Shown here one piece after another: positions 12,610 to 51,525 of a stretch of DNA of 64,000 bases. How positions within the stretch are numbered: position 1 is the stretch's first letter; the number at the start of each line of letters is the position of its first letter. A program made the position numbers and the translations under genes. The notes below the pieces were generated by a model. The model saw only the letters and a program-made list of their open reading frames with translations. It searched no databases and had not been told where the DNA came from. Source of the stretch: Gammaproteobacteria bacterium (GTDB lineage: Bacteria > Pseudomonadota > Gammaproteobacteria > JACCXJ01); the NCBI GenBank assembly GCA_050740455.1, contig JBOIDF010000001.1, forward strand, positions 2,839 to 66,838, in the 5' to 3' direction.

Positions 12610-14496
12610 ATGTCCAAGCATTTGAAAACCTGGCACCTGCGCGCCGCCGCCTTCCTGCATGATCTCATGATGATCCCGCTCGCCTGGCTGTGCGCTTATT
12701 GGTTGCGTTTTAATCTCGGGAGCATCCCGCAGGAATTCTTGACCGCGGGGGTCGGCGCTCTGTTCGTGGTCGTCCCCGTCCAAGCCGTCTTTTATTGGTA
12801 TGTCGGCCTCTACCGGGGTGTTTGGCGTTTCGCCTCGCTGCCCGATCTCATGCGCATCGGGCAGGCGGTGCTAGCGGGCGCCCTCGTGTGCGCGGCGGTG
12901 TTGTTCATGGTCACCCGGCTGCAGGGAGTGCCGCGTTCGGTCTTTCCTCTCTATGCGATCATTCTCGGGGGCTTGCTCGGTGGCCCGCGCTTCGCTTTCC
13001 GCTGGTTTAAGGACTATCACCTGCGCTCGCGCACCGGCCAGCGGGTCATCATCGTGGGTGCGGGGCAGGGGGGCGAATTGCTCATTCGGGACTTGATGCG
13101 CGATCCGGAATGCCGCTACCGGCCGGTCGCGTTTTTGGACGACGATCTCGCGAAATCGGGGCGCGAGATCCATGGCCTGCGGGTGCTGGGGACGAGCGAT
13201 GACTTGCCCGCCGCGGTGGACCGCCTGGATGCGCGGATGGTGATGATCGCCATTCCCTCGGCCACCTCGCGTCAAATGAAGCGTCTGGTCGAGTTGGCGG
13301 AGCGCACCGGGTTGCCGGTGCGCACCTTGCCGAGCATCCATGACGTGATGGCCGGCCGCGCCGGGATGAATGATCTCCGCGAGGTGCTGATCGAGGACCT
13401 CCTAGGGCGCGAGCCGGTGGCGCTCAACTGGAACCTGATTCGATCCCGCCTCTCAGGAAAGGCCGTGTTGATCACGGGCGCCGGGGGCTCGATCGGCGCG
13501 GAGCTATGCCGTCAGATCGCTCAGTTGTCGCCGGGAAAGCTCGTCGTTCTTGATCACTCCGAATTCAATCTTTATGAGTTGGATCTCGATCTCAAGACAG
13601 TCTTCCCGGACGTGGAGACGAGCTTTCATCTGTGTAATGTCTGCGATGAAGCCGCGGTGCGGCGCCTCATGCAGCGCCACGCGCCCGAGGTCGTGTTCCA
13701 TGCCGCGGCCTATAAGCACGTGTCCATGCTCGAATCGCAACTGCGGGAGGCCGTACACAACAATGTGCTCGGGACCAAGACCGTGGCCGAGGCCGCGCAT
13801 GCCGCCCGGGTGAGCCAATTCGTGCTCATCTCGACGGATAAAGCGGTGAATCCCGTGAATGTCATGGGGGCCAGCAAACGCGCTGCCGAGATAATCTGTG
13901 AGAATTTGCAGCAACGCTCCGCCACCCGCTTTACGACCGTACGCTTCGGAAACGTCTTGGGCTCGGCGGGCAGTGTGGTGCCGTTATTTCGTAAACAGAT
14001 CGGCTCGGGCGGCCCGGTCACCGTGACCCACCCGGAGGTCATGCGTTACTTCATGACCATCCCCGAGGCCTGCCAATTGATCATGCAGGCCGCCGCGATG
14101 TGCGAGAGCGGTGAAATTTTCGTGCTCGATATGGGAGAGCCGGTCAAGATCAGCGATCTCGCCGAGCAAATGATACGGCTCTCGGGGAAAGTCCCCGGCG
14201 CGGAGATCGAGATCGTGTATACGGGCCTGCGGGCCGGGGAGAAGCTCTTCGAGGAACTATTCCATGATCAGGAAGCCTTGCGCGCGACCAAGCACAAAAA
14301 GATTTTGCTGGCGCGTCACCGGCATGTCGATTCCAACGTGCTTAAATCGACCTTGGCGGAAATGGCCGAAGCCGTGGCCCACTACGATGAGGCACGCTTA
14401 CAGTCTTTGCTGCACCGCTTGGCGCCCGAATTCCCAACCCAGGCGGGCGAGAGCGCGACGGCCGCGGTGGTGCCGTTCACGCCCCGCGCGGGATAA
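12610..14496 (+). CDS. Membrane-anchored UDP-GlcNAc 4,6-dehydratase (PglF/WbpM/CapD family)
   Basis: 628 aa with N-terminal TM helices and an ..LITGAGGSIGAELCRQ.. NAD-binding site. CapD-like epimerase/dehydratase fold. Confidence 0.85.
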   Translation: MSKHLKTWHLRAAAFLHDLMMIPLAWLCAYWLRFNLGSIPQEFLTAGVGALFVVVPVQAVFYWYVGLYRGVWRFASLPDLMRIGQAVLAGALVCAAVLFMVTRLQGVPRSVFPLYAIILGGLLGGPRFAFRWFKDYHLRSRTGQRVIIVGAGQGGELLIRDLMRDPECRYRPVAFLDDDLAKSGREIHGLRVLGTSDDLPAAVDRLDARMVMIAIPSATSRQMKRLVELAERTGLPVRTLPSIHDVMAGRAGMNDLREVLIEDLLGREPVALNWNLIRSRLSGKAVLITGAGGSIGAELCRQIAQLSPGKLVVLDHSEFNLYELDLDLKTVFPDVETSFHLCNVCDEAAVRRLMQRHAPEVVFHAAAYKHVSMLESQLREAVHNNVLGTKTVAEAAHAARVSQFVLISTDKAVNPVNVMGASKRAAEIICENLQQRSATRFTTVRFGNVLGSAGSVVPLFRKQIGSGGPVTVTHPEVMRYFMTIPEACQLIMQAAAMCESGEIFVLDMGEPVKISDLAEQMIRLSGKVPGAEIEIVYTGLRAGEKLFEELFHDQEALRATKHKKILLARHRHVDSNVLKSTLAEMAEAVAHYDEARLQSLLHRLAPEFPTQAGESATAAVVPFTPRAG

Positions 14497-14500
14497 GGCT

Positions 14501-14633
14501 GGTTAAAATCTATTCCCCGCGGTCTTGCCGCGGGGACCTTAGCGATGGGGTTTCCAAAGGGGAGAAGCGCAGCTCTCCCCTTTGGTCGCCCCACGGGGTT
14601 GCATACCCCGTGGTGGCGAAATCTAAATTGACT
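14501..14633 (+). repeat. Family-1 three-hairpin intergenic element, copy 1
   Basis: Three consecutive perfect stems (CCCCGCGG/CCGCGGGG; CCAAAGGGGAGA/TCTCCCCTTTGG; CCACGGGGT/ACCCCGTGG). Near-identical copy at 25354-25484 on the opposite strand. Confidence 0.8.
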
Positions 14634-14634
14634 T

Positions 14635-15498
14635 TCAGTCACGGTTGATCGGAACCTTAAGATAACAGCGCCCATTCGACTCGGGCGGTGGAAACTGACC
14701 GGCACGGATATTAATCTCCAGCGAGGGGAAGAGGAGCTTTGGCGTCGCGAGTTGCTTATCCCGTGCATTGCGGAACCGGACGTAATCCTCCTCGCTCGTC
14801 GCCGCGTTGATTTGGATGTTGTGCTCCTGTTGTTCGGCCACCGCGGTCTCCCAGCGGTGTGTTCGCCGCTTTTCAGTCAAATAGTCATGACAGAGGAAAA
14901 GCCGGGTCTCGGGCGCCAGCGCATAAAGCTTTTGGATCGAGCGATAGAGCATCCGGGCATCGCCTCCTGGGAAGTCCGCTCGCGCCGAGCCGTAATCGGT
15001 CATGAACAAGGTGTCTCCAATGAAGGCCGCATCGCCGATGAGATAAGTCACGTCGGCTCGAGTGTGGCCGGGCGTGTAGAGCACATGCGCTTCCAGCGCC
15101 CCGATCCGAAAGCGTTCCTCTTCTTCGAATAGGTGATCGAATTGCGAGCCGTCGGCTCTGAGCTCATTGCCCAAGTTCAGTATACGCTTCCAGGTCTGCT
15201 GCACCTCGACGATGTGCTCTCCTATCGCGATGCGTCCGCCGCACTGCGCTTTTACCTCCTGTGCCGCACTCAGCCGATCGGCATGGCCATGGGTCTCCAA
15301 GATCCAATGGACGGTGAGCCCATGCGCTCGAATCCAAGCGATGACAGGCTCTATGCTCGCGGTACTCGTCCGCGAAGCTCCATTGTCGTAGTCGAGCACC
15401 GGATCGACGACCGCGCAATGGGGACCATGGGGCTCCCGCACCACATAGGTGAGCGAGCCGGTGGGTTCATGCATGAAGGCGGTAACGATGGGGTTCAT
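14635..15498 (-). CDS. MBL-fold metallo-hydrolase, persulfide dioxygenase (ETHE1/Sdo)-like
   Basis: Motif ..ETHGHAD.., a ..YTPGHT.. block, and an ETHE1-like C-terminus (..EDYVRFRNARDKQLATPKLLFPSLEINIRAG). The likely start is MNPIV...; the ORF as listed extends to 15525. Confidence 0.6.
   Translation of the reverse strand: MNPIVTAFMHEPTGSLTYVVREPHGPHCAVVDPVLDYDNGASRTSTASIEPVIAWIRAHGLTVHWILETHGHADRLSAAQEVKAQCGGRIAIGEHIVEVQQTWKRILNLGNELRADGSQFDHLFEEEERFRIGALEAHVLYTPGHTRADVTYLIGDAAFIGDTLFMTDYGSARADFPGGDARMLYRSIQKLYALAPETRLFLCHDYLTEKRRTHRWETAVAEQQEHNIQINAATSEEDYVRFRNARDKQLATPKLLFPSLEINIRAGQFPPPESNGRCYLKVPINRD
14646..14723. repeat. 78-bp direct repeat, copy 1 (3' end of the MBL-fold gene)
   Basis: 72/78 identical to 17021-17098. 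Confidence 0.85.
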
Positions 15499-16074
15499 CA
15501 TGTTTATGGTCCTACTGGGGATCACTGGGGAGATACATCTTGGCTTTGTCGAGCGCGTAGCTTCAAGGAAAGCCGCTCACCTGCCAGTCGTTGGCCGGGA
15601 AACGTGCGGGAACTAACGAATGTCGCCGAGTATCCCTTTGCCGTGGGGCGGGGGGCGAGATCCGGCTCTCCGAGTTTCGGGAGCCAAGGACGTTCCGACT
15701 CGGAATTATGGTTTTCTGGCCACATGGTTTGGCTTTACAGCTCTCGCAGGAACGCAGCCAGGTCCTACTTCTCGGCTTCGGTAAGCTTGATTCCCAGCAC
15801 CAGATTGAAGAATTATACCGTATCGTCCAGAGTGAGCAGCCGTCCATCATGCAGGTAGGTCGGCGAGTCCCTAATGCCGCGTAGCGGGAAAGTGCCGTCG
15901 GCCGAGTCCATCCGGCCATTGATCATCTGCGGCTTGTAGAAGCGCTCGACCTTAGAAGCACGCCGGGGCAGGCTGGCGTATAATCATGGGTGCCTGGAAT
16001 TTCCCAGGCGGGGCTCGTACGAGCGCCGGCCGAAGGCTGGCCGGGCCCGAAGGGCGAAAATCAAGGAGGACAGA

Positions 16075-16310
16075 TGGCCACGATCGAAAACCTCGTGCTA
16101 GAGCAACTCCGCGAGCTACGCAATGATGTGGCCGCGTTTCGGACCGACATCGGCGCCCGCATCAGCCGAGTCGAAATGCGTCTAGGCGCCATCGAGGCGC
16201 GTTTGAGCAGCGTTGAGTCGCGCCTGGCCGATATCGAAGCGCATCACGAGCAACGCTTAGAGCGCCTCGAGCGCCGGCTCGAGTTGACCTCGCCAGGCGA
16301 GCCATCGTGA
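16075..16310 (+). CDS. Small coiled-coil protein (78 aa), unknown function
   Basis: Strong RBS AAGGAGGA 7 nt upstream of the ATG. Heptad-rich sequence ..LRELRNDVAAFRTDIGARISRVEMRLGAIEARL... Confidence 0.5.
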
Positions 16311-16329
16311 TCATCGCGGTGATATTCCC

Positions 16330-16512
16330 ATGAGCGCCGACCGAACTCTCGCGATTGCCGGCCTGGTCGTCTTGGGCGCGGCGCTTGTGTGGTTCTTCGG
16401 CCGCGCCTTCGTGATGCTCGGTTGGAATAACGTTCTTAAGGTGTTCCGAGATCCGCCGTTCCTTTTGGCTCTGCTCGGCCTGCTCTTGGTCGTGGCGTCG
16501 TACTTATTATGA
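16330..16512 (+). CDS. Small membrane protein (60 aa, two predicted TM helices)
   Basis: Hydrophobic sequence ..LAIAGLVVLGAALVWFF.. and ..FLLALLGLLLVVASYLL. Tightly packed between two coiled-coil genes, with a 4-nt overlap onto the next ORF. Confidence 0.45.
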   Translation: MSADRTLAIAGLVVLGAALVWFFGRAFVMLGWNNVLKVFRDPPFLLALLGLLLVVASYLL

Positions 16513-16784
16513 CGTACCACGAAAGCGTCACGCTCGGGCTGGTGCGCGAGATTCAGGTCGAGCTCAGAGAGATGCGCGGCGAGATCAAAGCCGCGATTGA
16601 GTCGCTCGACGCAAGATTGAAGGTCCTCGAAGAAGAGCGGCGGAGGCTGGACAAGGGAATACTCAAGATGCGCGAAGAAGATCGCCAGGAACAGGCCGCC
16701 ATCGGCATCGATGACGAGCGCGAGGTCGGTTCATCCCCGCGTGTGCGGGGTATCCGGCGCAGTCAGACGGAAACGCGGCGGTAA
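16509..16784 (+). CDS. Small coiled-coil protein (91 aa), distant paralog of 16075-16310
   Basis: ..LVREIQVELREMRGEIKAAIESLDARLKVLEEERRRL.. has a similar heptad pattern to the first small gene. Confidence 0.45.
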   Translation: MTYHESVTLGLVREIQVELREMRGEIKAAIESLDARLKVLEEERRRLDKGILKMREEDRQEQAAIGIDDEREVGSSPRVRGIRRSQTETRR

Positions 16785-16993
16785 GGCTGGTTGAATTATC
16801 AGGGCGGCGCCTGGCGCGCGGTCCGCGCACGCGGTTCCACCCGCGCCCCCGCCGGCACTGCGGCGCGGGAAGCACCGCGACTGATCGGCGGCTGCCATCT
16901 GCGACCGGACGGTACATGCCCCAAAGGGTTCTGCGTGCGTGTACGCTATTTCTTTTGCACGCTATGGAAATCGTAACGTGGACAGGTGCAGCA

Positions 16994-17010
16994 GATTTTT
17001 TCACAAGCTC
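16994..17010. repeat. Solo MITE terminal inverted repeat (GATTTTTTCACAAGCTC)
   Basis: Matches the right terminal inverted repeat of the MITE at 22168-22310. Confidence 0.5.
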
Positions 17011-17020
17011 CCAGCCCGCA

Positions 17021-17098
17021 TGATTGGAACCTTCAGATAAGAGCGTCCATTCGACTCGGGCGGCGGAAACTGACCGGCACGCATATTAATCTCCAGCG
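17021..17098. repeat. 78-bp direct repeat, copy 2: orphan duplicate of the MBL gene 3' end (~25 codons, no upstream part)
   Basis: The reverse-strand translation ..EINMRAGQFPPPESNGRSYLKVPIM.. matches the C-terminus of the 14635 gene. Confidence 0.8.
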
Positions 17099-17117
17099 TC
17101 GTTAAGCTGCGCGCGCG

Positions 17118-17417
17118 TTAGCGCATCTCCTTGAGCGGCTTGTTAGCCGTATGCTCCACCAACTGGCCTTCGACGAACTTATGAAGCACGCTCGAAACAA
17201 GTGTTTGGTACGGTATGCCATCGGCAAGAGCGCGCTTCTGTAACGCGCGGAGGTCCTTAGATGAAATACGTATGTTGATACGACTATCCTTTTTAAAGGT
17301 TGCCGCAGCCGTCGCTCTATGACGCTCAATCTCTTTATCTACATCTTTGACTCGCTTTAGCGTGCCTTTCTCGAATGCTCGCAAAATCTCTTTCTCTTCA
17401 GGATCAAGTCTACTCAT
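17118..17417 (-). CDS. brnA: BrnA-type ribbon-helix-helix antitoxin
   Basis: ..DSRINIRISSKDLRALQKRALADGIPYQTLVSSVLHKFVEG.. is typical of BrnA. It overlaps the brnT stop. Confidence 0.75.
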   Translation of the reverse strand: MSRLDPEEKEILRAFEKGTLKRVKDVDKEIERHRATAAATFKKDSRINIRISSKDLRALQKRALADGIPYQTLVSSVLHKFVEGQLVEHTANKPLKEMR

Positions 17418-17691
17418 TAGATTCACCCACATACCTTTTTGTGGCTTTCCGGCTCGGAATTATGGTTTTGAGGAATATCACCTCATCCGATTCGACATAT
17501 GGCACCAGATACGCATAGCCTTCGACGATTACGACGGAGATCTTCTGGCCAGCGTAACGCTTCTGGTTTGGGTGCTCGAAGACGTCAATCTCGTCACCCG
17601 CCTCAATATGAAATACAACTTCCTCGAACGATATACCGCGCTCCCTTATCAATTGCTCGTTCTTTTCCGGGCTCCACGTGTAGTGCCTCAT
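17410..17691 (-). CDS. brnT: BrnT-type (DUF497) ribonuclease toxin
   Basis: 93 aa. ..WSPEKNEQLIRERGISFEEVVF.. matches the BrnT/DUF497 family. It sits upstream of, and overlaps, brnA. Confidence 0.75.
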   Translation of the reverse strand: MRHYTWSPEKNEQLIRERGISFEEVVFHIEAGDEIDVFEHPNQKRYAGQKISVVIVEGYAYLVPYVESDEVIFLKTIIPSRKATKRYVGESNE

Positions 17692-17726
17692 CTAACGATG
17701 ATACCAAACTGTGTGCCATATGTACT

Positions 17727-17750
17727 CCCGTGGCGAAATCTAAATTGACT
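17727..17750 (+). repeat. Fragment of the family-1 element (last 24 nt: CCCGTGGCGAAATCTAAATTGACT)
   Basis: Matches the 3' end of the 14501-14633 element. Confidence 0.5.
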
Positions 17751-17947
17751 ATGGCGGCGCCTCGCGCGCGGTCCGATAGCCGCAGCGCCGGCACTCCACT
17801 TTCTCGATGCCGGAACTGCCGCCGAAGGCAAACGACACTTCCACCACTCGAAAGTCGTGGAATCCCAATATACAGAGGAGTCGTCCTAGCTTTTTTAACC
17901 ACTCGTTTATCATTTTGCCGCCTCCGTCGTGAGAATCCGTAGGACCC

Positions 17948-17968
17948 AGAGCTTGTGAAGAAATCGTC
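17948..17968. repeat. Solo MITE terminal inverted repeat (AGAGCTTGTGAAGAAATCGTC)
   Basis: Matches the left terminal inverted repeat of the MITE at 22168-22310. Confidence 0.5.
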
Positions 17969-17984
17969 AGCGACCGAGAGCCAG

Positions 17985-19436
17985 TTACACCTTGCCCTGG
18001 GATAACGCATGCAACGCCAAGAATTCATCCGCGTCCCGCGGGCCCCAGGTGGCAAAGCTCGGCTCCGGATCCTCGGCATAGGCTTGCTTGATCTCTGCCA
18101 GCCAATCGCGCGCGCGGGGCAGCGCTTGAGGGTCGAGGCCGTAGGGGACGGCCGCATTGAGTCCAAAGACCTTGGCGCGCAAGGTGGGCGTGATTTCGGG
18201 ATAACCGTAACGCTCGCGGTATTCGGGGGCGATCTGAAAGGCGCGGAAGGCCTGGATCTGGTCTTGCGGGCTGCCGTACCAAATGGAGTCGGTGCCCCAG
18301 AGCACGTTGTTTTCGCCCACGTATCTGAATAACTTCCCGAGCACGTGGGCGGCTTGATCGGGGTCCTGCATCAACTGCCTCCAAGTGGTGCCGAGCTCCG
18401 CGTACACGTTGCTGTTCGGCGCGATGCCATTGTCTTCGAGCGATTTCACCAGTGAATCGACACCGCCCGCGGCGTTCTTCGGATCGTAAGGACCCTCGCG
18501 GCGGCCGGGATCGAATCCCGAGTGATAGACGATAAAGCTCACGTCCGGGTAACGGCGCGCGACGATCCCGATATCCCGGCAGGTGGAATACTCGTAGTCG
18601 AGATTGAACAGCGGGATCCCCTTGTGGATGCAAATCAACTTGACACCCAAGGCACGCGCTTTCTCTATGAACGCGATCCCGGTGCGCTCATCATCGAGCC
18701 AATAGCCCACTCCATCGGGCCCCCACTGGGTGTAGGTCTTCCACGCGCTGACGCGGTAGTCTTCCTTTTGGCGCGCCATGGCGTCAATGGCCCCCGGGAG
18801 GTTCGGATGCACGAGACCGTGGATGAGGAGCCGATGCCGACCTTCCATTGCCTCGACCAGCGCGCGGGTAGCCGCGGCGTCCGCCAGCGACAAGGGATTA
18901 TCCTCGGGCGCGGCAGGGACGGCCGAGAGCACGGCCATGTCGGTATCGCTGTCGAGGAATATCTCCCGCAGGAAGTGCTCGGCGGAGAAGCACTCGATGG
19001 CGTCGCCTCCGCAGTCCGCCTGTGGAAAGAAGCGCAGAATGTAGGTCCAGCGGTTCGTAAGCTTGCGCCAGCTCCCCTTGGGGTTCACATGGTGGGTTTG
19101 AATATCGAAGATGAACTCCTCCCCGCCGATGCGCTCCCCGGCCGCGGCGGGTTCGAAAGCGGCCTCCCGCGGCACGGCGTAGAAACCGCCGGCCTTGCCA
19201 CAGCGCGCAAACGCCTCGTTCATCGACAGCAAGGTCGCGGCCGCGCCGCAGATGGATTTTAGAAACGCGCGCCGGCCGAGACCGAGCTTTCTCGCCGTTC
19301 CGGTGGCGTTTTCTCGCGCCAAGCGATTGGCGTAGCGCACGCCCGCCGCCACCGGCCGCGGCAGGAACTCCCCGTTCGAGGTCGCATCGAGCTTGATGGG
19401 TAAGCGCCGGCCTCCGGGGTCAAAACGTTCGCTCAT
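17985..19436 (-). CDS. Amidohydrolase-family (TIM-barrel metal-dependent hydrolase) protein with twin-arginine signal
   Basis: 483 aa. N-terminal ..GRRAFLKSICGAAATLL.. is a Tat motif. Amidohydrolase_2-like blocks are present (..IFDIQTHH.., ..VKLICIHKG.., ..GTDSIWYG..). Confidence 0.6.
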   Translation of the reverse strand: MSERFDPGGRRLPIKLDATSNGEFLPRPVAAGVRYANRLARENATGTARKLGLGRRAFLKSICGAAATLLSMNEAFARCGKAGGFYAVPREAAFEPAAAGERIGGEEFIFDIQTHHVNPKGSWRKLTNRWTYILRFFPQADCGGDAIECFSAEHFLREIFLDSDTDMAVLSAVPAAPEDNPLSLADAAATRALVEAMEGRHRLLIHGLVHPNLPGAIDAMARQKEDYRVSAWKTYTQWGPDGVGYWLDDERTGIAFIEKARALGVKLICIHKGIPLFNLDYEYSTCRDIGIVARRYPDVSFIVYHSGFDPGRREGPYDPKNAAGGVDSLVKSLEDNGIAPNSNVYAELGTTWRQLMQDPDQAAHVLGKLFRYVGENNVLWGTDSIWYGSPQDQIQAFRAFQIAPEYRERYGYPEITPTLRAKVFGLNAAVPYGLDPQALPRARDWLAEIKQAYAEDPEPSFATWGPRDADEFLALHALSQGKV

Positions 19437-19444
19437 GGTTTATT

Positions 19445-19550
19445 CACTACTGCCCCGCCGCTTGCAACGGCCCACGTAAGCCTTGGGTTTTCAAAGGGGA
19501 GTAGTTGCAACTCTTCCCTTTGCTCGCCCGCGGGCGATATGGCGATATCC
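19445..19550 (+). repeat. Degenerate family-1 element copy upstream of leuS
   Basis: CCCCGCCGCTTGCAACGG...TTTCAAAGGGGAGtagttgcaaCTCTTCCCTTTG... aligns with the first two hairpins of the 14501 copy. Confidence 0.45.
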
Positions 19551-19706
19551 ATTAATTAACTATAGACCATCACCGGCGCTTTGATCGGGGGAGATATGCC
19601 CAAACCCTGTCTACTGCGGGGATCGCGTTGCGGAAATGGGCGCGGCGCAACGCCCGCCGGCTCCCCGGTTGTGGCAGGTGAGCCCGCTGCGGTATTCTCA
19701 GTGACT

Positions 19707-22160
19707 ATGGAGGCGCGATACCAACCGGCCAGCATCGAGCCCGCGATGCAACAACGATGGGAAGAGCAGCGGGTGTTTGCGGCCAGCGAAGAGCCGGGGC
19801 GGGAGAAATTCTACTGCCTTTCGATGTTCCCCTACCCGAGCGGGCGCCTGCATATGGGCCACGTCCGCAATTACACGATCGGCGATGTGATCGCCCGTTA
19901 TCAGCGCCTGCGGGGGAAGAACGTCCTGCAGCCGATGGGTTGGGACGCCTTCGGGCTGCCGGCGGAGAACGCCGCCATCGATAACCGCGTGCCCCCGGCG
20001 CGCTGGACCTATGAAAACATTGCCACTATGCGCGGCCAGCTCAAGCGTTTGGGGTTTGGGTATGACTGGGCACGCGAGCTGACCACCTGCCGGCCCGAGT
20101 ATTACCGCTGGGAGCAGTGGTTCTTTATACAGTTATTTAAGAAAGATCTGGTCTATAAGAAGACCGCCGTCGTCAATTGGGATCCGGTCGACCAAACAGT
20201 GCTCGCCAATGAGCAGGTCATCGATGGCAAGGGCTGGCGATCCGGGGCGCCCGTCGAGCGGCGCATGATCCCCCAGTGGTTCTTGAAGATCACCGATTAC
20301 GCCGAGGAATTGCTCACCGGTTTGGAGGGGCTCGAGGGTTGGCCGGACGCCGTGCGCACGATGCAGCGCAATTGGATCGGACGCTCCGAAGGCGTCGAGG
20401 CCGAGTTTTCGATCCCCGCACTTGGGGAGAGCGTGACGGTGTTCACCACGCGCCCGGACACGCTCATGGGCGCGACCTATCTCGCGGTCGCCGCCGAGCA
20501 CCCCTTGGCGGCGCGCTTTGCGCAACGTGATCCCGCGTTGGCCGGGTTCGTCAACGAGTGCCGCCACATGGGTACGAGCGAGGTGGAGCTCGAGACCATG
20601 GAGAAAAAAGGCATGCCGCTCGGGGTTGAAGCCCTGCACCCTATCACCGGCGAGGCCTTGCCGGTGTGGGTCGCCAACTTCGTGTTGATGGGCTACGGCA
20701 CCGGGGCGGTGATGGCGGTGCCCGCCCATGATCAGCGCGACTATGAGTTCGCGCGCCGCTTCGGCCTGCCGATTAAGCAGGTGGTGTTCCCCGGGGATGC
20801 TCTCAGCGCGGACATATCGGAGGCCGCGTTCATCGAACCGGGGGTGCTGAGAAATTCAGGCGCGTTCGATGGTTTAAGCTCGGCAGCGGCCTTCGCGGCC
20901 ATCGCCGAGTGTTTGCATGAGAACGGCAAAGGGCGGCGCAAAGTGAACTACCGTTTGCGTGACTGGGGCGTGTCCCGCCAGCGCTACTGGGGCTGCCCGA
21001 TCCCGATGCTCAATTGCCCGCGGTGCGGCCCCGTGCCGGTCCCCGAGGAGCAGTTGCCGGTGGTACTTCCCGAAGAGGTAGAGTTTCAGGGCGTGGTTTC
21101 TCCCATCAAGCGCATGCCGGAGTTTTACCAGGCACACTGTCCGGCCTGCGGCGTAACCGCCGAACGCGAGACCGACACCTTCGATACTTTTTTCGAATCC
21201 TCGTGGTATTACGCCCGTTACTGTTGCGCGGACAGCAGCGAGCGCATGCTCGATGCTCGGGTCCGCTACTGGCTGCCCGTGGATCAATACATCGGCGGCG
21301 TGGAGCATGCCGTGCTGCATTTGCTTTATGCCCGGTTTTTCCACAAGCTGATGCGCGACCTAGGAATGGCGCCGCATGCGGAGCCCTTCACGCGCCTGCT
21401 CACCCAAGGGATGGTGCTGAAAGACGGCGCCAAGATGTCGAAATCGAAGGGTAATACCGTCGATCCGCAAGCGCTCATCGATAAGTACGGGGCCGATACG
21501 GTGCGCTTATTCACCATGTTCGCGGCTCCGCCGGAGCAATCCCTCGAGTGGTCGGACACCGCCGTCGAAGGTGCGTTTCGCTTTCTCAAGCGTCTCTGGC
21601 GCTTCGCGGCGGAGCAACTCGCAGGCGGTGCCGCGGCTGCGGTCGATAAGACCCGGCTGACGCCGGCGCAAGCGGAATTACGCCGCCAGATCCATCAGAC
21701 GATCGCCAAGGTCAATGACGATATCGGGCGCCGCTATACGTTCAATACCGCGATCGCGGCGGTCATGGAGCTTACGAATGCCTTGACGGGTTTCAAGGAT
21801 AATTCCGAGCAGGGGCGCGCGCTGCTGCGCGAAGGTCTCGAGACCATCGCGATAGTGCTGTCCCCGATCGTGCCCCACATCACCGAGGCGCTCTGGGCCG
21901 CCCTCGGCCATGCGGATCTGGTCGCCAACGCGCGCTGGCCCACGGTCGATGAGGCCGCCCTGGTGCGCTCCGAGATCCGGCTAGTGGTGCAGATCGACGG
22001 TAAGAAGCGGGCCGATCTCACGCTCGCCGCGGGGACACCGGAGGCGCTGGTCAAGGAGATCGTGCTCGCCGATCCCAAGGTCCGGCGCTACCTCGAGGGT
22101 CACGAGATCGAGAAGCTCGTGGTGGTGCCCGGGCGCCTGGTGAACATCGTGACCGTATGA
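19707..22160 (+). CDS. leuS: Leucine--tRNA ligase
   Basis: [20 protein letters not shown].. start, [12 protein letters not shown] (HIGH motif) and KMSKSKGN (KMSKS motif). About 818 aa from the ATG at 19707. Confidence 0.95.
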
Positions 22161-22792
22161 TGAAGTCAGAGCTTGTGAAAAAATCGTCGCGAGCGAAGGG
22201 AGGTCGTGTTCCGCCGGCGCGCAGGAACCGGAGTGTATTTAAATACATGAGGATTCCGAGCACCGCCGGAACGCGAGATCCCGAGCGCAGCAGATTTTTT
22301 CACAAGCTCTCAGTGGCCGTCCTGGCGATCATCCTGTGTGGATATGGATGCGGATTTCACCTGCGCGGATCGAGCCCGGTGGCGCTTCGCTTCTCGGGCG
22401 TGTTTGTCGAGGCGGCCGGCGCTCCGCAAGTGGCGGCGCAATTGCGGCGGCAGTTGCAATATAATGGCGTTGTGCTAACGTCCAAACCCACCCGTGCGGA
22501 GGCTGTGGTTACGCTCAGAGACGAGCGCTTCGAGCAGCGCGTGCTTTCGGTCGATCCGCGCACCGGCAAGGTGCGCGAGTACGAGCTAGCCTATCGCGTC
22601 GATTTGATGGTGGCCGGCGCCAAGGGGCATTCCTTGCTCGCCGCGCAAAGCATCGATCTGGTGCGCGATTACACTTTCGATGAGACCGCGGCGCTTGCCA
22701 AATCCGATGAAGACCAGCTCTTGCGGCAAGAAATGATTCAAGACGCGGCCGCGACGGTGCTTAGACGGCTCGAAACCATTAAAGCGAAGTAA
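22157..22792 (+). CDS. lptE: LPS-assembly lipoprotein LptE; 5' region overlaps a MITE and the true start is uncertain (alternative ATG 22247)
   Basis: ..[12 protein letters not shown].. matches the E. coli LptE lipobox context (..AGCGWHLRD). The rest is LptE-like. The ATG overlaps the leuS stop in ATGATGA. Confidence 0.75.
22168..22310 (+). mobile_element. MITE (ERIC/Correia-like), copy A
   Basis: Terminal inverted repeats AGAGCTTGTGAAAAAATC / GATTTTTTCACAAGCTCT. Internal palindrome TGTATTTAAATACA. Lies between leuS and the lptE lipobox. Confidence 0.75.
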
Positions 22793-22980
22793 GGAAGCTC
22801 TGCAAACGTGTCGCGAGCAAGCCTAGATGCGCGAAGCAGCGGAGCGAGTCGCGAGACATATCAGGTAGATAGGCGAGCGAGGAGCGAGCACGCGAAGACG
22901 CGGGGAGCGGTCCAGGGACGGCCGCGCTTTGAGAAGCGAGGAAAGCAGATGGGCTGCGCAGTACCTTTTGCAGAGCTTCC
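22793..22980 (+). mobile_element. MITE (same family), copy B, 188 bp
   Basis: Terminal inverted repeats GGAAGCTCTGCAAA / TTTGCAGAGCTTCC. The GCGAGC-rich core is about 90% identical to copy D (51259-51402). It begins 1 nt after the lptE stop and ends 5 nt before the holA ATG. Confidence 0.85.
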
Positions 22981-22985
22981 GTAAG

Positions 22986-24059
22986 ATGACGGCAGCCCGC
23001 CCGCGGCCCCGGGCAAAGCTCAAACCCGCCGAGCTTGGGGCGCGCATCGAACGCGAGGGGCTCGAACGGCTCTATCTCATCGCGGGCGATGAGCCCTACC
23101 AGTGTCTGGAGGCGATGGACCAGATCCGATCCCAGGCGCGTGCGCTCGGCGTCACGGAGCGCGTGGTGCTCGAAGCGCAAGCGGGATTCGACTGGCAACG
23201 CCTGCGCTACGAGGCGAATCACCTGAGCCTCTTCAGCGACCGCCGGCTCATAGAGCTTACCCTCGCGCACGTTCCCCCGCGGAACGAAGGCGCGCAAGCC
23301 ATCATCGCCTATACCCAAGGGATGTCAGCGGACACCGTGGTGGTGATCCGCGCGCCCGTCCTCGATTACAGAGCAAAGCAAGGCGCATGGTACCAGGCCA
23401 TCGAAGCCGCGGGCGTGGTTGTCGAAGTCGCGCCGGTGCCGCCCGAGGCGATGCCGGACTGGATCCTGCGGCTCGGCGAACGGCGCGGTCTCATCCTGGA
23501 TCAGGAGGCGGCGATGTTCATTGCCGAGCGGGTCGAGAATAACCTGCCCGCGGCAAGTCAGGAGCTTGAGAAGCTCCGGCTTTCCTTGCCGGGCGGCAAG
23601 GCCGGTCTCGAGGACGTCGTCGCGGTGGTCACGGACAGCAGCCGTTATGACGTGTTCGCCCTAGTCAATTGCGTGTTGGAAGGGCGCCAGGCACGATCCC
23701 TGTCCGTGCTCGCGGGACTCCGCGCCGAGGGTACCGAAGCCGCGCTCGTGACCTGGTCTCTGGTGCGTGAGCTGCGGATCCTATGCCGCTTGGCTTATAA
23801 TCAGGCGCGCAAGCTTCCTTTGGAGCCCGTGTTCGAGGAATTCCGAGTCTGGGATCGGCGTAAAGCGGCCTTGAAACCGGCACTGCGGCGCCACACCGTC
23901 GCCAGCTTGCGGGAGTTGCTGCTGGCCGCTCATCAAGTAGAACGAGCCATCAAAGGCGCGAGCCCAGGAGATCCGTGGCTCATGCTGGCGGAGGTGGCGA
24001 TCGGCCTCGCCGCAAGCAATGCCTCACGACGGCAGCGGAATTACAATGTGAACGAGTGA
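22986..24059 (+). CDS. holA: DNA polymerase III subunit delta
   Basis: ..[11 protein letters not shown].. in the N-terminal region matches HolA. It follows leuS-lptE, the conserved gene order. Confidence 0.8.
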
Positions 24060-24805
24060 CCTAGATAGACCTGGCGTACGGTGTCGTTGGCGAGAACGGT
24101 CTCCGGCGCGCCCTCCGCGATGATGGTTCCTTCATTGACGATATAAGCCCGATCGCAGATCCCCAGGGTCTCGCGGACGTTGTGGTCGGTAATCAAGATC
24201 CCGATCCCGCGCGCCGCAAGCTGTTTGATGACCTTCTGAAGATCGAGCACCGAAAGCGGATCGACGCCGGCGAAGGGTTCATCGAGCATAATGAACTCGG
24301 GCTCCGCCGCCAGTGTCCGCGCGATCTCCGTGCGCCGCCGCTCGCCTCCCGACAGGGTTTCGCCCACACGATCGGACACCTGCTGAAGATGGAACTCTTG
24401 CAGCAGGCCCGTCAGCCGGCGTTCGCGCTCAACCGCATCGATGACCGATCGTATTTCCAGTACCGCCAGGACGTTTTCCCTTACCGTGAGCTTTCTGAAG
24501 ATGGAAGGCTCCTGCGGTAGATAGCCCAGTCCTAAACGCGCGCGCTGGTCCATCGGCAAGGCGGTAATGTCGCGGCGGTTGAGAAACACGGCGCCGGTGT
24601 CATTCGGCACGAGACCCACGATCATGTTGAAGCTCGTGGTCTTACCCGCGCCATTCGGACCGAGCAAACCGACGACTTCTCCGCTGTTAACCTTTAGGCT
24701 GACATCCTTGACGACCTGCCGCGACTGATACGTTTTGGAAAGGTGCCGGGCGCTGATGACGTGGGTCGATTTTTCGCCGGGTTCATTCTTTTGGTCGAGA
24801 TCCAC
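24041..24805 (-). CDS. lptB: LPS export ABC transporter ATP-binding protein LptB (putative GTG start; no canonical ATG nearby)
   Basis: ..[21 protein letters not shown].., ..[16 protein letters not shown].., ..[12 protein letters not shown].. are nearly collinear with E. coli LptB. The ORF as listed extends to 24943. Confidence 0.85.
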
Positions 24806-25358
24806 CAGCGCCGGAGCCGCGATTGGTTCCGTTTGGTTCCGTCTTTTTGGCTGGAGGAATGATGATCCGTACCCGGCCATCGTCCGTGGCCCCGTTGTCA
24901 TCGGATAGCTCGCCGGGGCGCGCCTTTCTTGCTTTAAGGACATTGCGAGCGGTATCGTAGGTCATGTGGTGGCCGGTGTAAATCTGCCCCCGTTGCACGA
25001 TTTTGACCTTGTTGGTCATATGGATCAGTTGCTCTTGCGCCTGATACCTCATGTTGAGGGCCTCGCCCTCGATATCCTCCTCCTCGTTGTCGGGGCGTTG
25101 CCGGTAAGTCGCCGGGCTGCCTTCCAAGAGCGCTTCTTTCAGCTGTTGGTCGGGCGCATAGTTCAAGGTGAGGGTGTGGCCGGTGAAGCGCGTGCTCCCT
25201 TGGATGACGATGACATTCCCGCGGTAGATCGCAACCCCTGCCTTATCGTCGATTTCCACGAAGTCTGCCGTGACTTCAATCGGTTGATCGCGATCGGTGG
25301 ACAACGCGGCGGCGGCCGTGACAAAGAATAAACCCGCCAGCAACACGCTGGAAGTCAA
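24783..25358 (-). CDS. lptA: LPS transport periplasmic protein LptA (TTG start at 25358, or GTG at 25376)
   Basis: Signal peptide ..[20 protein letters not shown], then the OstA-like fold (..[44 protein letters not shown]..). The listed ORF's extra N-terminus is encoded by the family-1 repeat. Confidence 0.8.
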
Positions 25359-25484
25359 TTTAGATTTCGCCACCACGGGGTATGCAACCCCGTGGGGCGA
25401 CCAAAAGGGAGAGCTGCGCCTCTCCCCTTTGGAAACCCCATCGCTAAGGTCCCTGCGGCAAGACCGCGGGGAATAGATTTTAAC
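25354..25484 (-). repeat. Family-1 three-hairpin element, copy 2 (between the lptC stop and the lptA start)
   Basis: The reverse complement is ~97% identical to 14501-14633. One stem mismatch is G-U compatible. Confidence 0.85.
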
Positions 25485-26064
25485 GCTTTTCGTCATAATG
25501 AGTCCGCACGTTTTTCAGCAATTCGACCAGGCCAAACGCAAGCCGCGCACGCATCCCGATTCCCCGGGTGATGGACGTGGGCGTGATGATCGTGGCGGCG
25601 CTATCGGTTTCAGCATAGCGCTTTTTGGGCAGTATCCTGAGATCGGGCGCTTGCACCTCGATCTCGCGCACGCCCTCGGGGTTTCGGCGCCACACTCTCA
25701 CGTTTCCGTACAGCAAGACGGTATCGTTGTTGGCCCCGATCCATCCCGAGTCGGCACGGGCGAACCACGGCGCCTTCGGATTATCGCTATAGAGCTCGAG
25801 GGTGGGATGAAGGAGTTGGGTGGTGTCATCCCCGAAGTGGAACATGCGCTTGGCGCGGAGCCTGCTTTCGAGCCTTCCGCGCTCGTCCATGGCGGTGCGG
25901 ACGAAGTTCTCCATGTAAGAATCCGGTTCATCCGGGCCGACCGCCTCGCGGGTGATATTCTGCTCTTCCAGGCGCTCCAGGATCCAAGCGGTGGTGCCGG
26001 CGCAAACGCTAAGTGCGATCACCCCCGGCCAGTGCTTTAGCTTGCGGAAGCTTAGAATCGTCAC
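25480..26064 (-). CDS. lptC: LPS export inner-membrane anchor protein LptC
   Basis: 194 aa with an N-terminal TM helix and LptC fold. Position is between kdsC and lptA. Confidence 0.8.
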   Translation of the reverse strand: MTILSFRKLKHWPGVIALSVCAGTTAWILERLEEQNITREAVGPDEPDSYMENFVRTAMDERGRLESRLRAKRMFHFGDDTTQLLHPTLELYSDNPKAPWFARADSGWIGANNDTVLLYGNVRVWRRNPEGVREIEVQAPDLRILPKKRYAETDSAATIITPTSITRGIGMRARLAFGLVELLKNVRTHYDEKR

Positions 26065-26077
26065 AGAAGCTGTTCTT

Positions 26078-26221
26078 AGAGGTTGTGAATAAATCTGCTG
26101 CGCATCCCGATCGCGGCGTCGCGTGCTCGCTCGCTCCTCGCCTATCTGGTTGATATGTCTCGTCGCTCACTCCGCGGCTCCTTGCGCTCGGAATGCTCGC
26201 GACGATTTATTCACAACCTCT
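26078..26221 (-). mobile_element. MITE (same family), copy C, inverted relative to B/D
   Basis: Terminal inverted repeats AGAGGTTGTGAATAAATC / GATTTATTCACAACCTCT. The core is the reverse complement of the B/D core. It fills the kdsC-lptC intercistronic gap. Confidence 0.8.
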
Positions 26222-26766
26222 TAGCTCAAGTACCGGCCGTAAAGGTTTGCGAGCGCGCCTTGCGCATCGAGGAGCAGCTCGCACAATTCGCGCACGGCGC
26301 CGCGTCCGCCGGGTTGCCGTGTCCGCCAATGCGCATGCTGACACACTAAATGGTGCGCATCGGCCACGGCAACCGCAAGTCCGGCGCGCATCATGACCGG
26401 CAAATCCGGCACATCGTCTCCCATGAACGCCGCCTGCTCGGCGCTCAAGCCGAGCTCGCGGAGCAGCGCATTGAAGATCGATAGCTTGTCGGAGGCCCCC
26501 TGGTAGATGTACCGTATCCCGAGCTCCGTCATGCGCTCTTCGACCGCCGCCGAAGCGCGTCCCGAAATCACGGCGATGTGTAAGCCGGCTTCCCGCAGCA
26601 TGGCCAGCCCCTGCCCATCGCGGGTGTGAAACAGCTTCAACTGCTCGCCTCGCTCGCCCAGGATCAGACTGCCGTCGGTCAGCACCCCGTCGACATCGAA
26701 TGCGGCGAGGCGGATCTTCGCGGCCCTGGCCTTGACCCGATGCAGCGGTTCCGCGAGGTCCGCCAT
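26221..26766 (-). CDS. kdsC: 3-deoxy-D-manno-octulosonate 8-phosphate phosphatase
   Basis: ..FDVDGVLTDG.. HAD motif I and ..FMGDDVPD.. motif. Confidence 0.85.
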   Translation of the reverse strand: MADLAEPLHRVKARAAKIRLAAFDVDGVLTDGSLILGERGEQLKLFHTRDGQGLAMLREAGLHIAVISGRASAAVEERMTELGIRYIYQGASDKLSIFNALLRELGLSAEQAAFMGDDVPDLPVMMRAGLAVAVADAHHLVCQHAHWRTRQPGGRGAVRELCELLLDAQGALANLYGRYLS

Positions 26767-51068: not shown

Positions 51069-51258
51069 GCTGCGCTCCGCGCGATTGGCGCCCGTGTCGA
51101 AACGTCGAGCGCGCGAATTCGCGTACATTCACGCCGCGCTACATGCGCGGTTTTTCGCGGCTTCGTGGCATGACCCGCGAAATACTGCGGGAGTTGTGGA
51201 CGGTTGGTCGGATCGCTCGACCCATCGTTCCATGCGACAGGAGGCGAGCTAAAACTAA

Positions 51259-51402
51259 GGAAGCTCTGCAAAAGTGTCGCGAGCAAGCTCAAATGCGCGA
51301 AGCCGCGGAGCGAGTCGCGAGACATATCAGTTAGATAGGCGAGCGACGAGCGAGCACGCGACAAAGCAGATGGGCTGCGCAGTAACTTTTGCAGAGCTTC
51401 CC
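51259..51402 (+). mobile_element. MITE (same family), copy D
   Basis: Terminal inverted repeats GGAAGCTCTGCAAAAG / CTTTTGCAGAGCTTCC. The core is ~90% identical to copy B. Confidence 0.85.
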
Positions 51403-51525
51403 TAAGTGTCCCGGCAAATGAATTGCTTAGCTGAGGTTGGGCGACACGGACATGCTCCTGGCACGCAAATAGCGTGAATCCCTATGAGAGCACAAGAAGC
51501 CTTGACCACATTAGAGGAAATCACA

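Follow-up and report, generated by a model that had tools for sequence, protein, structure and literature searches.

PATEs (palindrome-associated transposable elements) are gene-less derivatives of IS200/IS605 elements (Dyall-Smith et al. 2011, PMC3119063; Meers et al. 2023, PMC10055086). They have no inverted terminal repeats, carry palindromes near their termini, do not duplicate their target and are too small for a coding sequence (PMC3119063), and they are reported often to encode ωRNAs that are used in trans by TnpB (PMC10055086). Classical MITEs (Correia/NEMIS, RUP, ERIC and a MITE of the window studied here) resemble the element described below in being gene-less, intergenic, 100-160 bp long and often co-transcribed with their neighbours, and in preferring A/T-rich targets such as TTAA; unlike it, they have terminal inverted repeats (TIRs), one long hairpin and a duplicated target (TA, TTAA). 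REPs are single, imperfect palindromes of 20-40 nt with a conserved 5' GTAG, are usually found as inverted pairs and flank the RAYT gene. ωRNA scaffolds measure ~115-150 nt and end exactly at the right end of the transposon; those of TnpB are encoded at the 3' end of tnpB or downstream of it, and their transcription continues past the right end into a guide of 16-20 nt.

The window, i.e. the whole 64,000-nucleotide stretch of DNA analysed, is part of a USC-gamma (atmospheric methane oxidiser) genome and contains three copies of a hairpin-rich element. We lean towards reading it as a non-autonomous mobile DNA element of 125-135 bp, of the IS200/IS605 PATE type, that is moved in trans. The copies and the features around them are as follows.

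12610-14496, + strand: PglF-like polysaccharide biosynthesis gene, with its stop codon 10 nt 5' of copy 1
14503-14506: target-like TTAA, directly against the 5' end of copy 1
14507-14633, + strand: full copy 1, subfamily A (covariance model 172 bits, E=6e-48; nhmmer; fold); its 5' part is the leader AATCTATT
14515-14522/14528-14535, + strand: copy 1 hairpin H1, 8-bp perfect stem, joined to H2 by a linker containing the invariant TGGGGTTT
14554-14565/14574-14585, + strand: copy 1 hairpin H2, 12-bp perfect stem
14587-14590/14615-14618, + strand: copy 1, outer CGCC/GGCG of H3
14591-14599/14605-14613, + strand: copy 1 hairpin H3, 9-bp perfect stem, followed by the tail AAATCTAAATTGAC(T)
14634-17726, no strand assigned: inserted DNA of ~3.1 kb, extending from copy 1 to the repeat of its tail
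17727-17750, + strand: tail fragment of 24 nt, made of the H3 3' arm and AAATCTAAATTGACT, repeating the copy 1 tail
~19442-19566, + strand: decayed copy 3, a relative of subfamily B (covariance model 26 bits, E=1.8e-4; nhmmer 49.6 bits)
24783-26064, - strand: lptA (24783 to ~25358) and lptC (25480-26064), LptA and LptC being identified by Pfam
25353-25479, - strand: full copy 2, subfamily A, at the lptC/lptA junction (covariance model 166 bits)
25483-25480: TTAA target of copy 2, including the lptC stop codon TAA (25482-25480)

An earlier note on this DNA had placed two near-identical full copies at 14501-14633 (+) and 25354-25484 (-); both were recovered, with the refined boundaries given above. 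The degenerate copy that it saw at 19445-19550 is a true relative, in which H2 is the only hairpin still intact, and its 24-nt tail fragment is real. The 21-mer tail GTGGCGAAATCTAAATTGACT occurred exactly three times in the window, against 0 expected by chance, and the core GGGTTTCCAAAGGGGAGA was present in 3/3 window copies. The three perfect stems of 8, 12 and 9 bp were described correctly for copy 1. In contrast to the single stem difference claimed between the full copies, a G to A change said to keep a G-U pair, we found three differing positions. The G>A change lies in the 3' arm of H1, where it produces a C·A mismatch and opens the stem; a G-U pair is retained, on the sense strand of the element, at a C>U difference in the 3' arm of H2, and the third difference is located at the H2 apex.

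Searches beyond the window indicated that the family is large, previously uncatalogued and widespread in uncultured Gammaproteobacteria. An exact tail scan identified 35 true copies in 7 USC-gamma-type MAGs, a core scan found diverged subfamilies at at least 120 metagenome loci, and nhmmer returned 189 non-overlapping matches in the fetched loci; the neighbours of these copies are ordinary genes. No matches to the element were found in plasmids or in the searched literature. The earlier note had proposed a search of Rfam and a covariance model built from the copies: the model recovered copy 3, but Rfam release 15 gave 0 window matches at gathering thresholds and noise only in E-value mode (best 21.8 bits, against a microRNA model), and identity with an Rfam family was rejected.

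Comparison of orthologous sites revealed that the element is mobile. The lptC/lptA site is empty in two relatives (L043 and L047, GCGCTAA/CTCCAG, the slash marking the boundary) and filled in the window and in two others (L044 and L045, GCGTTAA/[A]ATCTATT…ATTGAC/CTCCAG). A second clean pair was provided by L132, which is empty (CCGTAG/TTACC), and L126, which is filled (CCGTAA/TTCTGAATA…TATTGA/TTACC). The site orthologous to that of copy 3 is empty in L047 and is occupied in L048 by two tandem copies, the orthologs of copy 3. No target duplication of more than 2 nt was detected at these three sites, where boundaries are defined to ±1 nt. Close relatives lack the element at the same junctions, so it is dispensable for the flanking genes.

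Insertion takes place immediately 3' of T-T-N-A. In subfamily A, T was found in 29/32 and A in 30/32 of the left flanks around the variable N, and the left flank of subfamily C read T25, T22, G22, A29 of 32. The end of the element itself is TTGA(Y); right ends consisted of TTGA followed by CT (49 and 47 of 52) or by TT (36 and 35 of 38), in each case with random sequence beyond. The T-T-N-A preference accounts for the position of the element beside stop codons: among the T-N-A sites that can be hit without damage in a GC-rich genome, the stop codons TAA and TGA are the most frequent, and copies therefore pile up at gene ends and operon junctions. Because the 3' end of the element recreates the target motif, tandem arrays, which do occur, are possible and inserted foreign sequence is found at this end. 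No terminal inverted repeats were found in subfamilies A, B and C, the best being a weak 7/10 resemblance in subfamily C, and pairing of the termini is limited to a 5-bp GUUAA/UUGAC in some copies, paired in 65% of cells. With neither TIRs nor a target duplication at lptC/lptA and L132/L126, the element is not a classical MITE. A different MITE, of the TIR type, occupies in a relative the same lptC/lptA TTAA as the window element; in L042 this second MITE is bounded by TIRs of 16 nt and has TTAA on either side. The TIR-bearing MITE is also present in the window, at 22167-22313 and 26075-26225.

The element thus shares with PATEs the absence of terminal inverted repeats and of target duplication, palindromes near both termini (the distance is 8-14 nt from the 5' end to H1 and 13-15 nt from H3 to the 3' end), a length too short for a protein, a left-end oligonucleotide (T-T-N-A) resembling a TAM and a right-end TTGA[Y] resembling a TEM. 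Homogeneous, high-identity subfamilies beside heterogeneous relatives and the insertion of other mobile DNA in or beside the element are further common traits. Unlike PATEs, its two near-terminal hairpins, H1 and H3, are dissimilar to each other, its conservation peaks in a third, central hairpin whereas PATEs and IS200/IS605 elements have conserved ends, and the family crosses many gammaproteobacterial lineages with its core almost unaltered. It also differs in that the fetched loci contain neither an IS605-type parent nor a TnpA whose ends correspond to its own: an IS200-type TnpA homologue was not found among 2141 ORFs in ~1.1 Mb of loci, no tnpB-like ORF was attached to any copy in the loci examined, and there was no full-length partner among the tail or core matches. 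If it derives from an IS200/IS605-like element in the manner of PATEs, it would transpose by 'peel-and-paste' in the form of folded single-stranded DNA, mobilised by a Y1/HUH transposase presumably supplied in trans. The hairpins are very stable as single-stranded DNA, and the covarying H1 and H3 may be the structures recognised by the transposase. Effects on neighbouring genes, through the stop or start codons provided and through stable hairpins in read-through mRNAs, would be side effects; the 3' end of copy 2 (TTG, 25358-25356), for instance, may supply the lptA start codon. Near-identical copies of subfamily A contain indels and stem-breaking mutations and show no covariation, a pattern that fits decay from a master copy.

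Structural conservation was investigated across the family. The earlier note's view of a non-coding, strongly structured element was supported: the fold of a copy is much more stable than that of shuffles (RNA z=-7.7, DNA z=-9.2). The covariation that it had proposed to look for was found as compensatory changes across 51 diverged members, where the three-hairpin structure had 17 pairs and 136 cells with such changes, as compared to 9.2 pairs and 52±6 cells in shuffle controls (0/500 reaching the observed value) and at most 37 cells in slid-structure controls. Strong covariation between subfamilies is located in H1 and H3, and the central H2 (GGGGTTTCCAAAGGGGAG…CTCCCCTTTGG) is nearly invariant. 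Together with the adjacent single-stranded TGGGGTTT stretch, H2 forms a near-invariant block of ~45 nt, and the termini are the least conserved part. This distribution, which speaks against a PATE-type element, suggests an extra, unexplained constraint. Orthologous copies are conserved to a degree equal to or above that of the flanking coding DNA, indicating that they are not simply decaying.

These properties could be explained if the conserved core of a mobile element encoded a functional RNA, such as a stand-alone, ωRNA-like guide-RNA scaffold acting in trans with a nuclease of the TnpB/IscB type, or another protein-binding small RNA, with H2 as the putative protein-binding module. We consider this unlikely. 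Along with the covariation in H1 and H3, the near-invariant centre and the conserved orthologous copies, the loops of H1 are RNA-type tetraloops (CUUG/UUCG-type), and on the sense strand G·U moderately exceeded A·C at paired sites (G·T 51 versus A·C 27, a count biased by the search pattern). Tetraloops and G·T excess are a hint of constraint at the RNA level; the asymmetry was nevertheless non-significant once the arm fixed by the pattern was set aside, and the uncorrected count was G·T 55 versus A·C 41 (p=0.18). The multi-hairpin fold, the size of ~125 nt, the end at the right transposon end and a target-adjacent motif of the T-T-N-A type would all be shared with ωRNA scaffolds of TnpB, and the ωRNAs reported from PATEs (PMC10055086) also speak for this explanation. 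Against it, and unlike TnpB ωRNAs, the element had no tnpB or iscB beside any copy in the loci examined and no sequence or structure match in Rfam, even in permissive mode. The copies showed neither a conserved promoter nor, in a terminator scan, a conserved terminator. The element may still conceivably have a role of the sRNA type.

Somewhat more doubtful is the proposal that the element is a host-domesticated, REP/BIME-like repeat that serves the cell in mRNA 3'-end protection, in binding of nucleoid proteins or gyrase, or in similar ways, and that owes its maintenance to a single-copy RAYT-type transposase. It has in common with REP/BIME and REPIN-RAYT systems of Enterobacteria and Pseudomonas that it is a strictly intergenic, hairpin-rich repeat found in both orientations, tolerated in operons such as lptC-lptA, presumably mobilised by an HUH-type enzyme and possibly able to stabilise mRNA; its orthologous copies are conserved and it reaches tens of copies per genome. 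REP/BIME repeats, however, number in the hundreds per genome. The consensus sequences contain no GTAG-hairpin unit and the copies do not form inverted doublets; the unit is 125-135 nt long with three different hairpins, as opposed to the short REP palindromes, and a REP/BIME-RAYT identity was therefore rejected. No RAYT homologue was found among the 2141 ORFs of the loci (~1.1 Mb), and the insertion polymorphism, together with a target shared with another MITE, points to ordinary selfish mobility.

The earlier note had interpreted the element as a cis-acting intercistronic RNA (a terminator, attenuator or RNase site) controlling the flanking transcription units, which now appears very unlikely. 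Its fold is indeed very stable, and in the window two of the copies follow a stop codon directly and read in the sense direction; the T-N-A target preference accounts for this link with stop codons. The statement that each copy has the same sense as its transcription unit and fills the space between a stop codon and the start of the following gene applies to the lptC/lptA copy, which interrupts the two genes at their junction, and fails for copies 1 and 3, because the neighbours of copy 1 are convergent (PglF-like, +; MBL-fold hydrolase, -) and those of copy 3, which lies in a divergent promoter region, are divergent (amidohydrolase, -; leuS, +). The census suggested by the note confirmed a dispersed family, whose junction context was not consistently sense. 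Relative to the upstream gene, 32 copies had the same and 43 the opposite orientation, with identical numbers for the downstream gene; settings were tandem-sense (12), tandem-antisense (15), divergent (10) and convergent (8). Orientation relative to neighbours is random across ~116 copies. A Rho-independent terminator or attenuator was likewise rejected: the scan placed no such site on the sense strand of the copies, and H3, read in sense, is not followed by a U-tract. The sole terminator-like match in the scan was antisense H1 followed by AUAGAUUUUA, which faces the MBL-hydrolase gene in copy 1 and has a weak score and an interrupted U-tract. A relative whose LptC is 90% identical has an overlapping, element-free lptC-lptA junction. 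Collectively, these data indicated that the element is not a dedicated regulator of neighbouring genes.

A site-specific recombination site (attC-like or Xer/dif-like), with the 3.1-kb segment as a captured cassette, is extremely improbable. In its favour, the 3' end of the element is the precise site of the insertion, which is accompanied by a 21-24-nt tail duplication, and some 5' junctions read GTTAAAA, like the R' core of attC. In integron attC sites, R'' (RYYYAAC) and R' (GTTRRRY) cores close a single bulged hairpin, and the cassettes form same-orientation arrays next to intI. Identity with attC was rejected: the 5' G is not conserved (G/T variable), there are three separate hairpins instead of one bulged R''-L''/L'-R' hairpin, and the copies, in mixed orientation, are dispersed between housekeeping genes rather than grouped in arrays of cassettes near an integrase. 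The ~3.1-kb insertion, of which the tail fragment at 17727-17750 forms the right border, is missing in the relatives L048 and L047; it contains the MBL-fold hydrolase, small ORFs and a BrnT/BrnA-like toxin-antitoxin pair.

The window contains two full copies of the element (copies 1 and 2), a decayed third copy and a tail fragment. The element consists of a 5' leader, three hairpins (H1, H2 and H3) and a 3' tail, and its copies lie in the following contexts:

14507-14633 (+), copy 1, between convergent genes encoding a PglF-like protein and an MBL-fold hydrolase
17727-17750 (+), tail fragment
about 19442-19566 (+), copy 3, between divergent genes encoding an amidohydrolase and LeuS
25353-25479 (-), copy 2, between lptC and lptA

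The full copies, placed by the earlier note at 14501-14633 (+) and 25354-25484 (-), could be aligned along some 130 nt and differ at three positions. A 21-mer from the tail, GTGGCGAAATCTAAATTGACT, matched the window exactly three times (copy 1, copy 2 and the fragment at 17730-17750) and matched none of 100 shuffled sequences; the core GGGTTTCCAAAGGGGAGA is present in copies 1 to 3. The suspected degenerate copy proved to be a real relative (covariance-model E=1.8e-4; nhmmer 49.6 bits) in which H2 is the only stem still intact. Perfect stems of 8, 12 and 9 bp are indeed found in copy 1, where H3 is further lengthened by CGCC/GGCG across a bulge. The predicted fold is strong both as RNA (-82 kcal/mol, z=-7.7 against shuffled sequence) and as DNA (-44 kcal/mol, z=-9.2). 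The full copies had been said to differ at a single stem position with pairing kept as G-U. There are in fact two such differences: a C>U change in the 3' arm of H2, which retains a G-U pair, and a G>A change in the 3' arm of H1, which creates a C·A mismatch. A position after a stop codon, before the next start and in operon sense describes copy 2 but not copies 1 and 3; copy 1 adjoins the stop codons of both its convergent neighbours.

Comparison with related genomes revealed empty sites. The window LptC protein is found as an exact match on contig CDIABF010000018.1 of GCA_975305705.1, and its nearest relatives (90-92% identity) are encoded by MAGs labelled Chromatiales/USCg, including one from the Frasassi cave. 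The Lehman and Frasassi MAGs belong to the genus USCg-Taylor, upland-soil-cluster-gamma high-affinity methanotrophs (preprint 10.1101/2024.08.23.608578). In a genome with 90% LptC identity to the window (loci L043/L047), which carries the element family elsewhere, the lptC/lptA junction is empty (GAAAAGCGCTAA^CTCCAGCGTG, ^ marking junctions) and the two genes overlap, whereas copy 2 places 127 nt between them. The filled junction, present in the window and in L044 (the Frasassi MAG), reads GCGTTAA^(A)ATCTATT…AAATTGAC^(T/C)TCCAGCGTG. A third relative (L042/L048) has a quite different element at the same TTAA, flanked by TTAA at each end and bearing 16-nt terminal inverted repeats. Metagenome contigs provided a second clean pair, empty in L132 (CCGTAG^TTACC) and filled in L126 (CCGTAA^TTCTGAATACCC…GTATATTGA^TTACC), and the site of copy 3 is empty in L047 and occupied by two tandem copies in L048. 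With element boundaries fixed to ±1 nt, no target duplication longer than 2 nt was seen at any of these three compared sites, and terminal inverted repeats are absent from the element. Nor did the L132/L126 comparison or the junction profiles show a duplicated TA, TTAA or TNA such as IS630/IS5 MITEs leave.

The junction profile of all copies showed T-T-N-A directly 5' of the element. The left flank of subfamily A has T in 29 of 32 copies, a variable base and A in 30 of 32; that of subfamily C reads T25, T22, G22 and A29 of 32. The conservation of T and A around a variable base argues that the motif was selected as a target and not inherited. At the right end the element has TTGA, then CT in subfamily A (49 and 47 of 52) or TT in subfamily C (36 and 35 of 38), beyond which the sequence is random. 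In many cases an upstream gene in the sense orientation stops precisely at the junction, and copies lie at gene ends and stop codons because TAA and TGA are themselves T-N-A sites. The 3' end of the element recreates a T-T-N-A site, which would explain the head-to-tail tandem arrays found in some contigs (L048, L093 and L168) and may explain a segment of about 3.1 kb beside copy 1. This segment also holds small ORFs and contains:

14634-17726, the segment itself, between the end of copy 1 and the duplicated 21-24-nt tail; absent from L047/L048
14635-15525 (-), MBL-fold hydrolase
17118-17691 (-), BrnT/BrnA-like toxin-antitoxin pair

A 78-nt duplicate of the 3' end of the hydrolase gene lies at 17021-17098.

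Both the lptC/lptA spacing and the stop-codon contact of copy 1 would be side effects of harmless landing sites. The 237-aa ORF publicly annotated as LptA (24783-25496, -) reads through the whole element and is a false call made by gene callers; the true start, with a signal peptide, is probably the TTG at 25358-25356, in the last bases of the element, or the GTG at 25346.

An exact scan with a 19-mer of the tail (one genome per species) returned 39 loci, 35 of which are true copies, distributed over seven USC-gamma-type MAGs and one Pyrinomonadaceae bin; the other four are chance matches within genes. The copy in the latter bin, a full subfamily-A copy (L021, 1378-1520 of JBPCIQ010000275.1), lies on a contig binned as Acidobacteriota and represents either a mis-binned USC-gamma contig or a horizontal transfer. 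Subfamily-A copies are 90-100% alike, their differences being internal deletions and substitutions that break stems. Together with the lack of covariation among them (below), this pattern fits a master copy that spread recently and whose copies then decayed. Subfamily B, found in relatives of the window, has H3 changed from CCACGGGG/CCCCGUGG to GGGCGGGG/CCCCGCCC. Scanning metagenomes with the 19-mer core TGGGGTTTCCAAAGGGGAG yielded at least 120 loci and, among the core matches listed, many more subfamilies, with copies of 42 to 61% GC. The abundant subfamily C resides in an uncultured gammaproteobacterial lineage whose nearest named relative is Methylohalomonas (ABC-F protein, 65% identity). 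Several copies may share a contig, as in L050, where three lie within 3.6 kb among ordinary genes. No match was found to Rfam (whole window at gathering thresholds; copy 1 in a permissive scan) or, using subfamilies A and C as blastn queries, to PLSDB plasmids. According to ARAGORN the whole window, with its copies, is free of tRNA and tmRNA genes, and none of the papers searched in full text contained the core string. The 19 viral-contig matches to an 18-mer core are unrelated sequences: some encode EWGFPKGR in giant-virus contigs and the remainder belong to a different, GC-rich phage repeat. The latter carries the 18-mer GGGGTTTCCAAAGGGGAG followed by GTTTCAAGGGGGTGCGGGGGGAAATCGGAATCCCCCCGC (L169-L186, from IMG/VR contigs, L131 and L159) and recurs in many viral contigs of one metagenome (3300045988).

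Covariation, whose absence the earlier note had named as a ground for refutation, became visible only once diverged subfamilies were sampled. Subfamily A (29 copies) is too uniform to reveal any (paired cells 93.8%, shuffles 93.6%; two double changes), and an apparent compensatory change in L003 was discounted as being off by one position. We derived the three-hairpin structure column by column from 51 members with a mutual identity of at most 90%. In this alignment the share of paired cells is 93.6% (shuffles 85.5%), compensatory changes occur in 17 of 30 pairs, compensatory cells number 136 against 51.9±5.6, and the covariation score is 0.272 against 0.126 (0/500 shuffles for each); slid controls did not exceed 0.067. 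The covarying pairs comprise 10 of 10 in H3 and 5 of 6 in H1, indicating selection on the hairpins. H2 shows almost no variation; the search pattern dictated the sequence of its 5' arm, yet near-invariance extends to the 3' arm and the flanking TGGGGTTT…GGTCG, on which the pattern placed no constraint. An alternative CCCC/GGGG pairing or G-quadruplex proposed by RNAalifold does not hold from one subfamily to another. Covariation by itself is compatible with selection on either RNA or single-stranded DNA. Sense-strand asymmetry is at most weak: G·T and A·C at paired positions stand at 55:41 (p=0.18), or 51:27 after dropping two badly aligned pairs, a count inflated by the pattern-fixed arm. The CUUG/UUCG-type loops of H1 lean towards RNA without being decisive. 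In L084 (about 930-1060) and L139 (about 3710-3840), TCGCC after H2 is replaced by AAACC and GGGGTTTCCAAAGGGGAG…CTCCCCTTTGGAAACCCC becomes one long perfect palindrome, suggestive of DNA-level correction with the hairpin as template.

Collectively, the element is gene-less and duplication-free, lacks terminal inverted repeats, has near-terminal hairpins and is specific for a target motif. We conclude that it belongs to a large, uncatalogued family of hairpin-bearing mobile repeats resembling palindrome-associated transposable elements (PATEs), the gene-less derivatives of IS200/IS605; the family itself is new, and the kind of element is already known. The element matches the logic of transposon-adjacent and transposon-encoded motifs in IS200/IS605 transposition (PMC10055086). 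It would move as folded single-stranded DNA by means of a Y1/HUH transposase supplied in trans, with H1 and H3 as the putative recognition hairpins. A BLAST search of 2141 ORFs from the loci, using an approximate IS200 TnpA query, found no IS200-type TnpA homologue. All-against-all clustering of these ORFs followed by Pfam annotation returned housekeeping families only, with histidine kinases, ABC-F proteins, SDR, dehydrogenases and similar proteins as recurrent neighbours. Core copies lacking H1 were considered as right ends of full-length insertion sequences and rejected, their upstream ORFs being rpsI, glnA and similar genes, not tnpB.

Three features fit a PATE poorly: conservation peaks in the middle of the element and not at its termini, H1 does not resemble H3, and orthologous copies are well conserved. 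A near-invariant centre with covarying terminal hairpins is unlike decaying transposon ends, and this conservation pattern points either to a recognition protein or to an RNA function. Across seven pairs of orthologous copies, element identity is 0.94-1.00 and that of the flanks mostly 0.88-0.98 (one upstream flank has diverged to 0.60); in the window/L044 pair the element stands at 0.93 against third-codon-position identities of 0.93 and 0.85. Conservation of orthologous copies is thus equal to or above that of flanking coding DNA. Given these three features, the element may have an added RNA or protein-binding function. PATEs are reported to encode ωRNA (TnpB guide RNA) scaffolds often (PMC10055086). 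The family might itself be an RNA module on the move through uncultured Gammaproteobacteria, atmospheric-methane oxidisers among them: either a transposable guide-RNA scaffold that stands alone (ωRNA-like) or another protein-binding structured RNA, with a conserved protein recognising the ultra-conserved central hairpin; we consider this unlikely. Were a mobile guide RNA involved, the 3' flank of each copy would be the guide and T-T-N-A the target-adjacent motif.

The reading of the element as a cis-acting intercistronic regulatory RNA of its flanking genes was not borne out. Crude gene calls around some 116 copies revealed no preferred orientation (same/opposite 32/43 for the upstream and for the downstream gene), and copies are often found in each of the four contexts, tandem-sense, tandem-antisense, divergent and convergent. 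Subfamily A taken alone gave the same picture. Neither a terminator-like site on the sense strand nor a promoter-like site was called at the copies; an outward -35 promoter at the TTGACT/TTGATT end was rejected, with no site called and no -10 at the right spacing. Together with the lack of database matches and the empty orthologous sites, this excludes dedicated cis-regulation as a general function. On the opposite strand, H1 followed by AUAGAUUUUA scores as intrinsic-terminator-like at 14514-14536 (-) and 25450-25472 (+), the former facing the convergent MBL-hydrolase gene.

The PATE-like reading gives a mechanistic reason for a 130-nt hairpin block sitting on stop codons and in essential operons (lptC-lptA). 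Being widespread, strongly structured and absent from Rfam, the family is now open to modelling and masking. USC-gamma methanotrophs, which have not been cultured, are important to the atmospheric methane sink, and insertion polymorphisms could mark strains in their populations. Should a TnpA/TnpB-type system prove to be the partner, nature would have supplied in this family a collection of minimal substrates or guide scaffolds. The ultra-conserved central hairpin is most worth following up.

Other repeats were noted in the window. A second, unrelated MITE family (22167-22313 and 26075-26225; half-sites 16988-17014 and 17947-17968) has terminal inverted repeats of about 20 nt (CAGAGCTTGTGAAAAAATC…/TTAGAGGTTGTGAATAAATC…) and TTAA/TTAG-type flanks, and occupies the leuS/lptE junction and the kdsC/lptC gap. 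A copy of it is present in L042 (3085-3233) at the lptC-stop TTAA, where the window has the hairpin element. A third repeat pair, 28.4 kb apart, lies at 22787-22895 and 51253-51361 (109 nt, 93% identity), with an adjoining 44 nt (95%) at 22942-22985 and 51363-51406.
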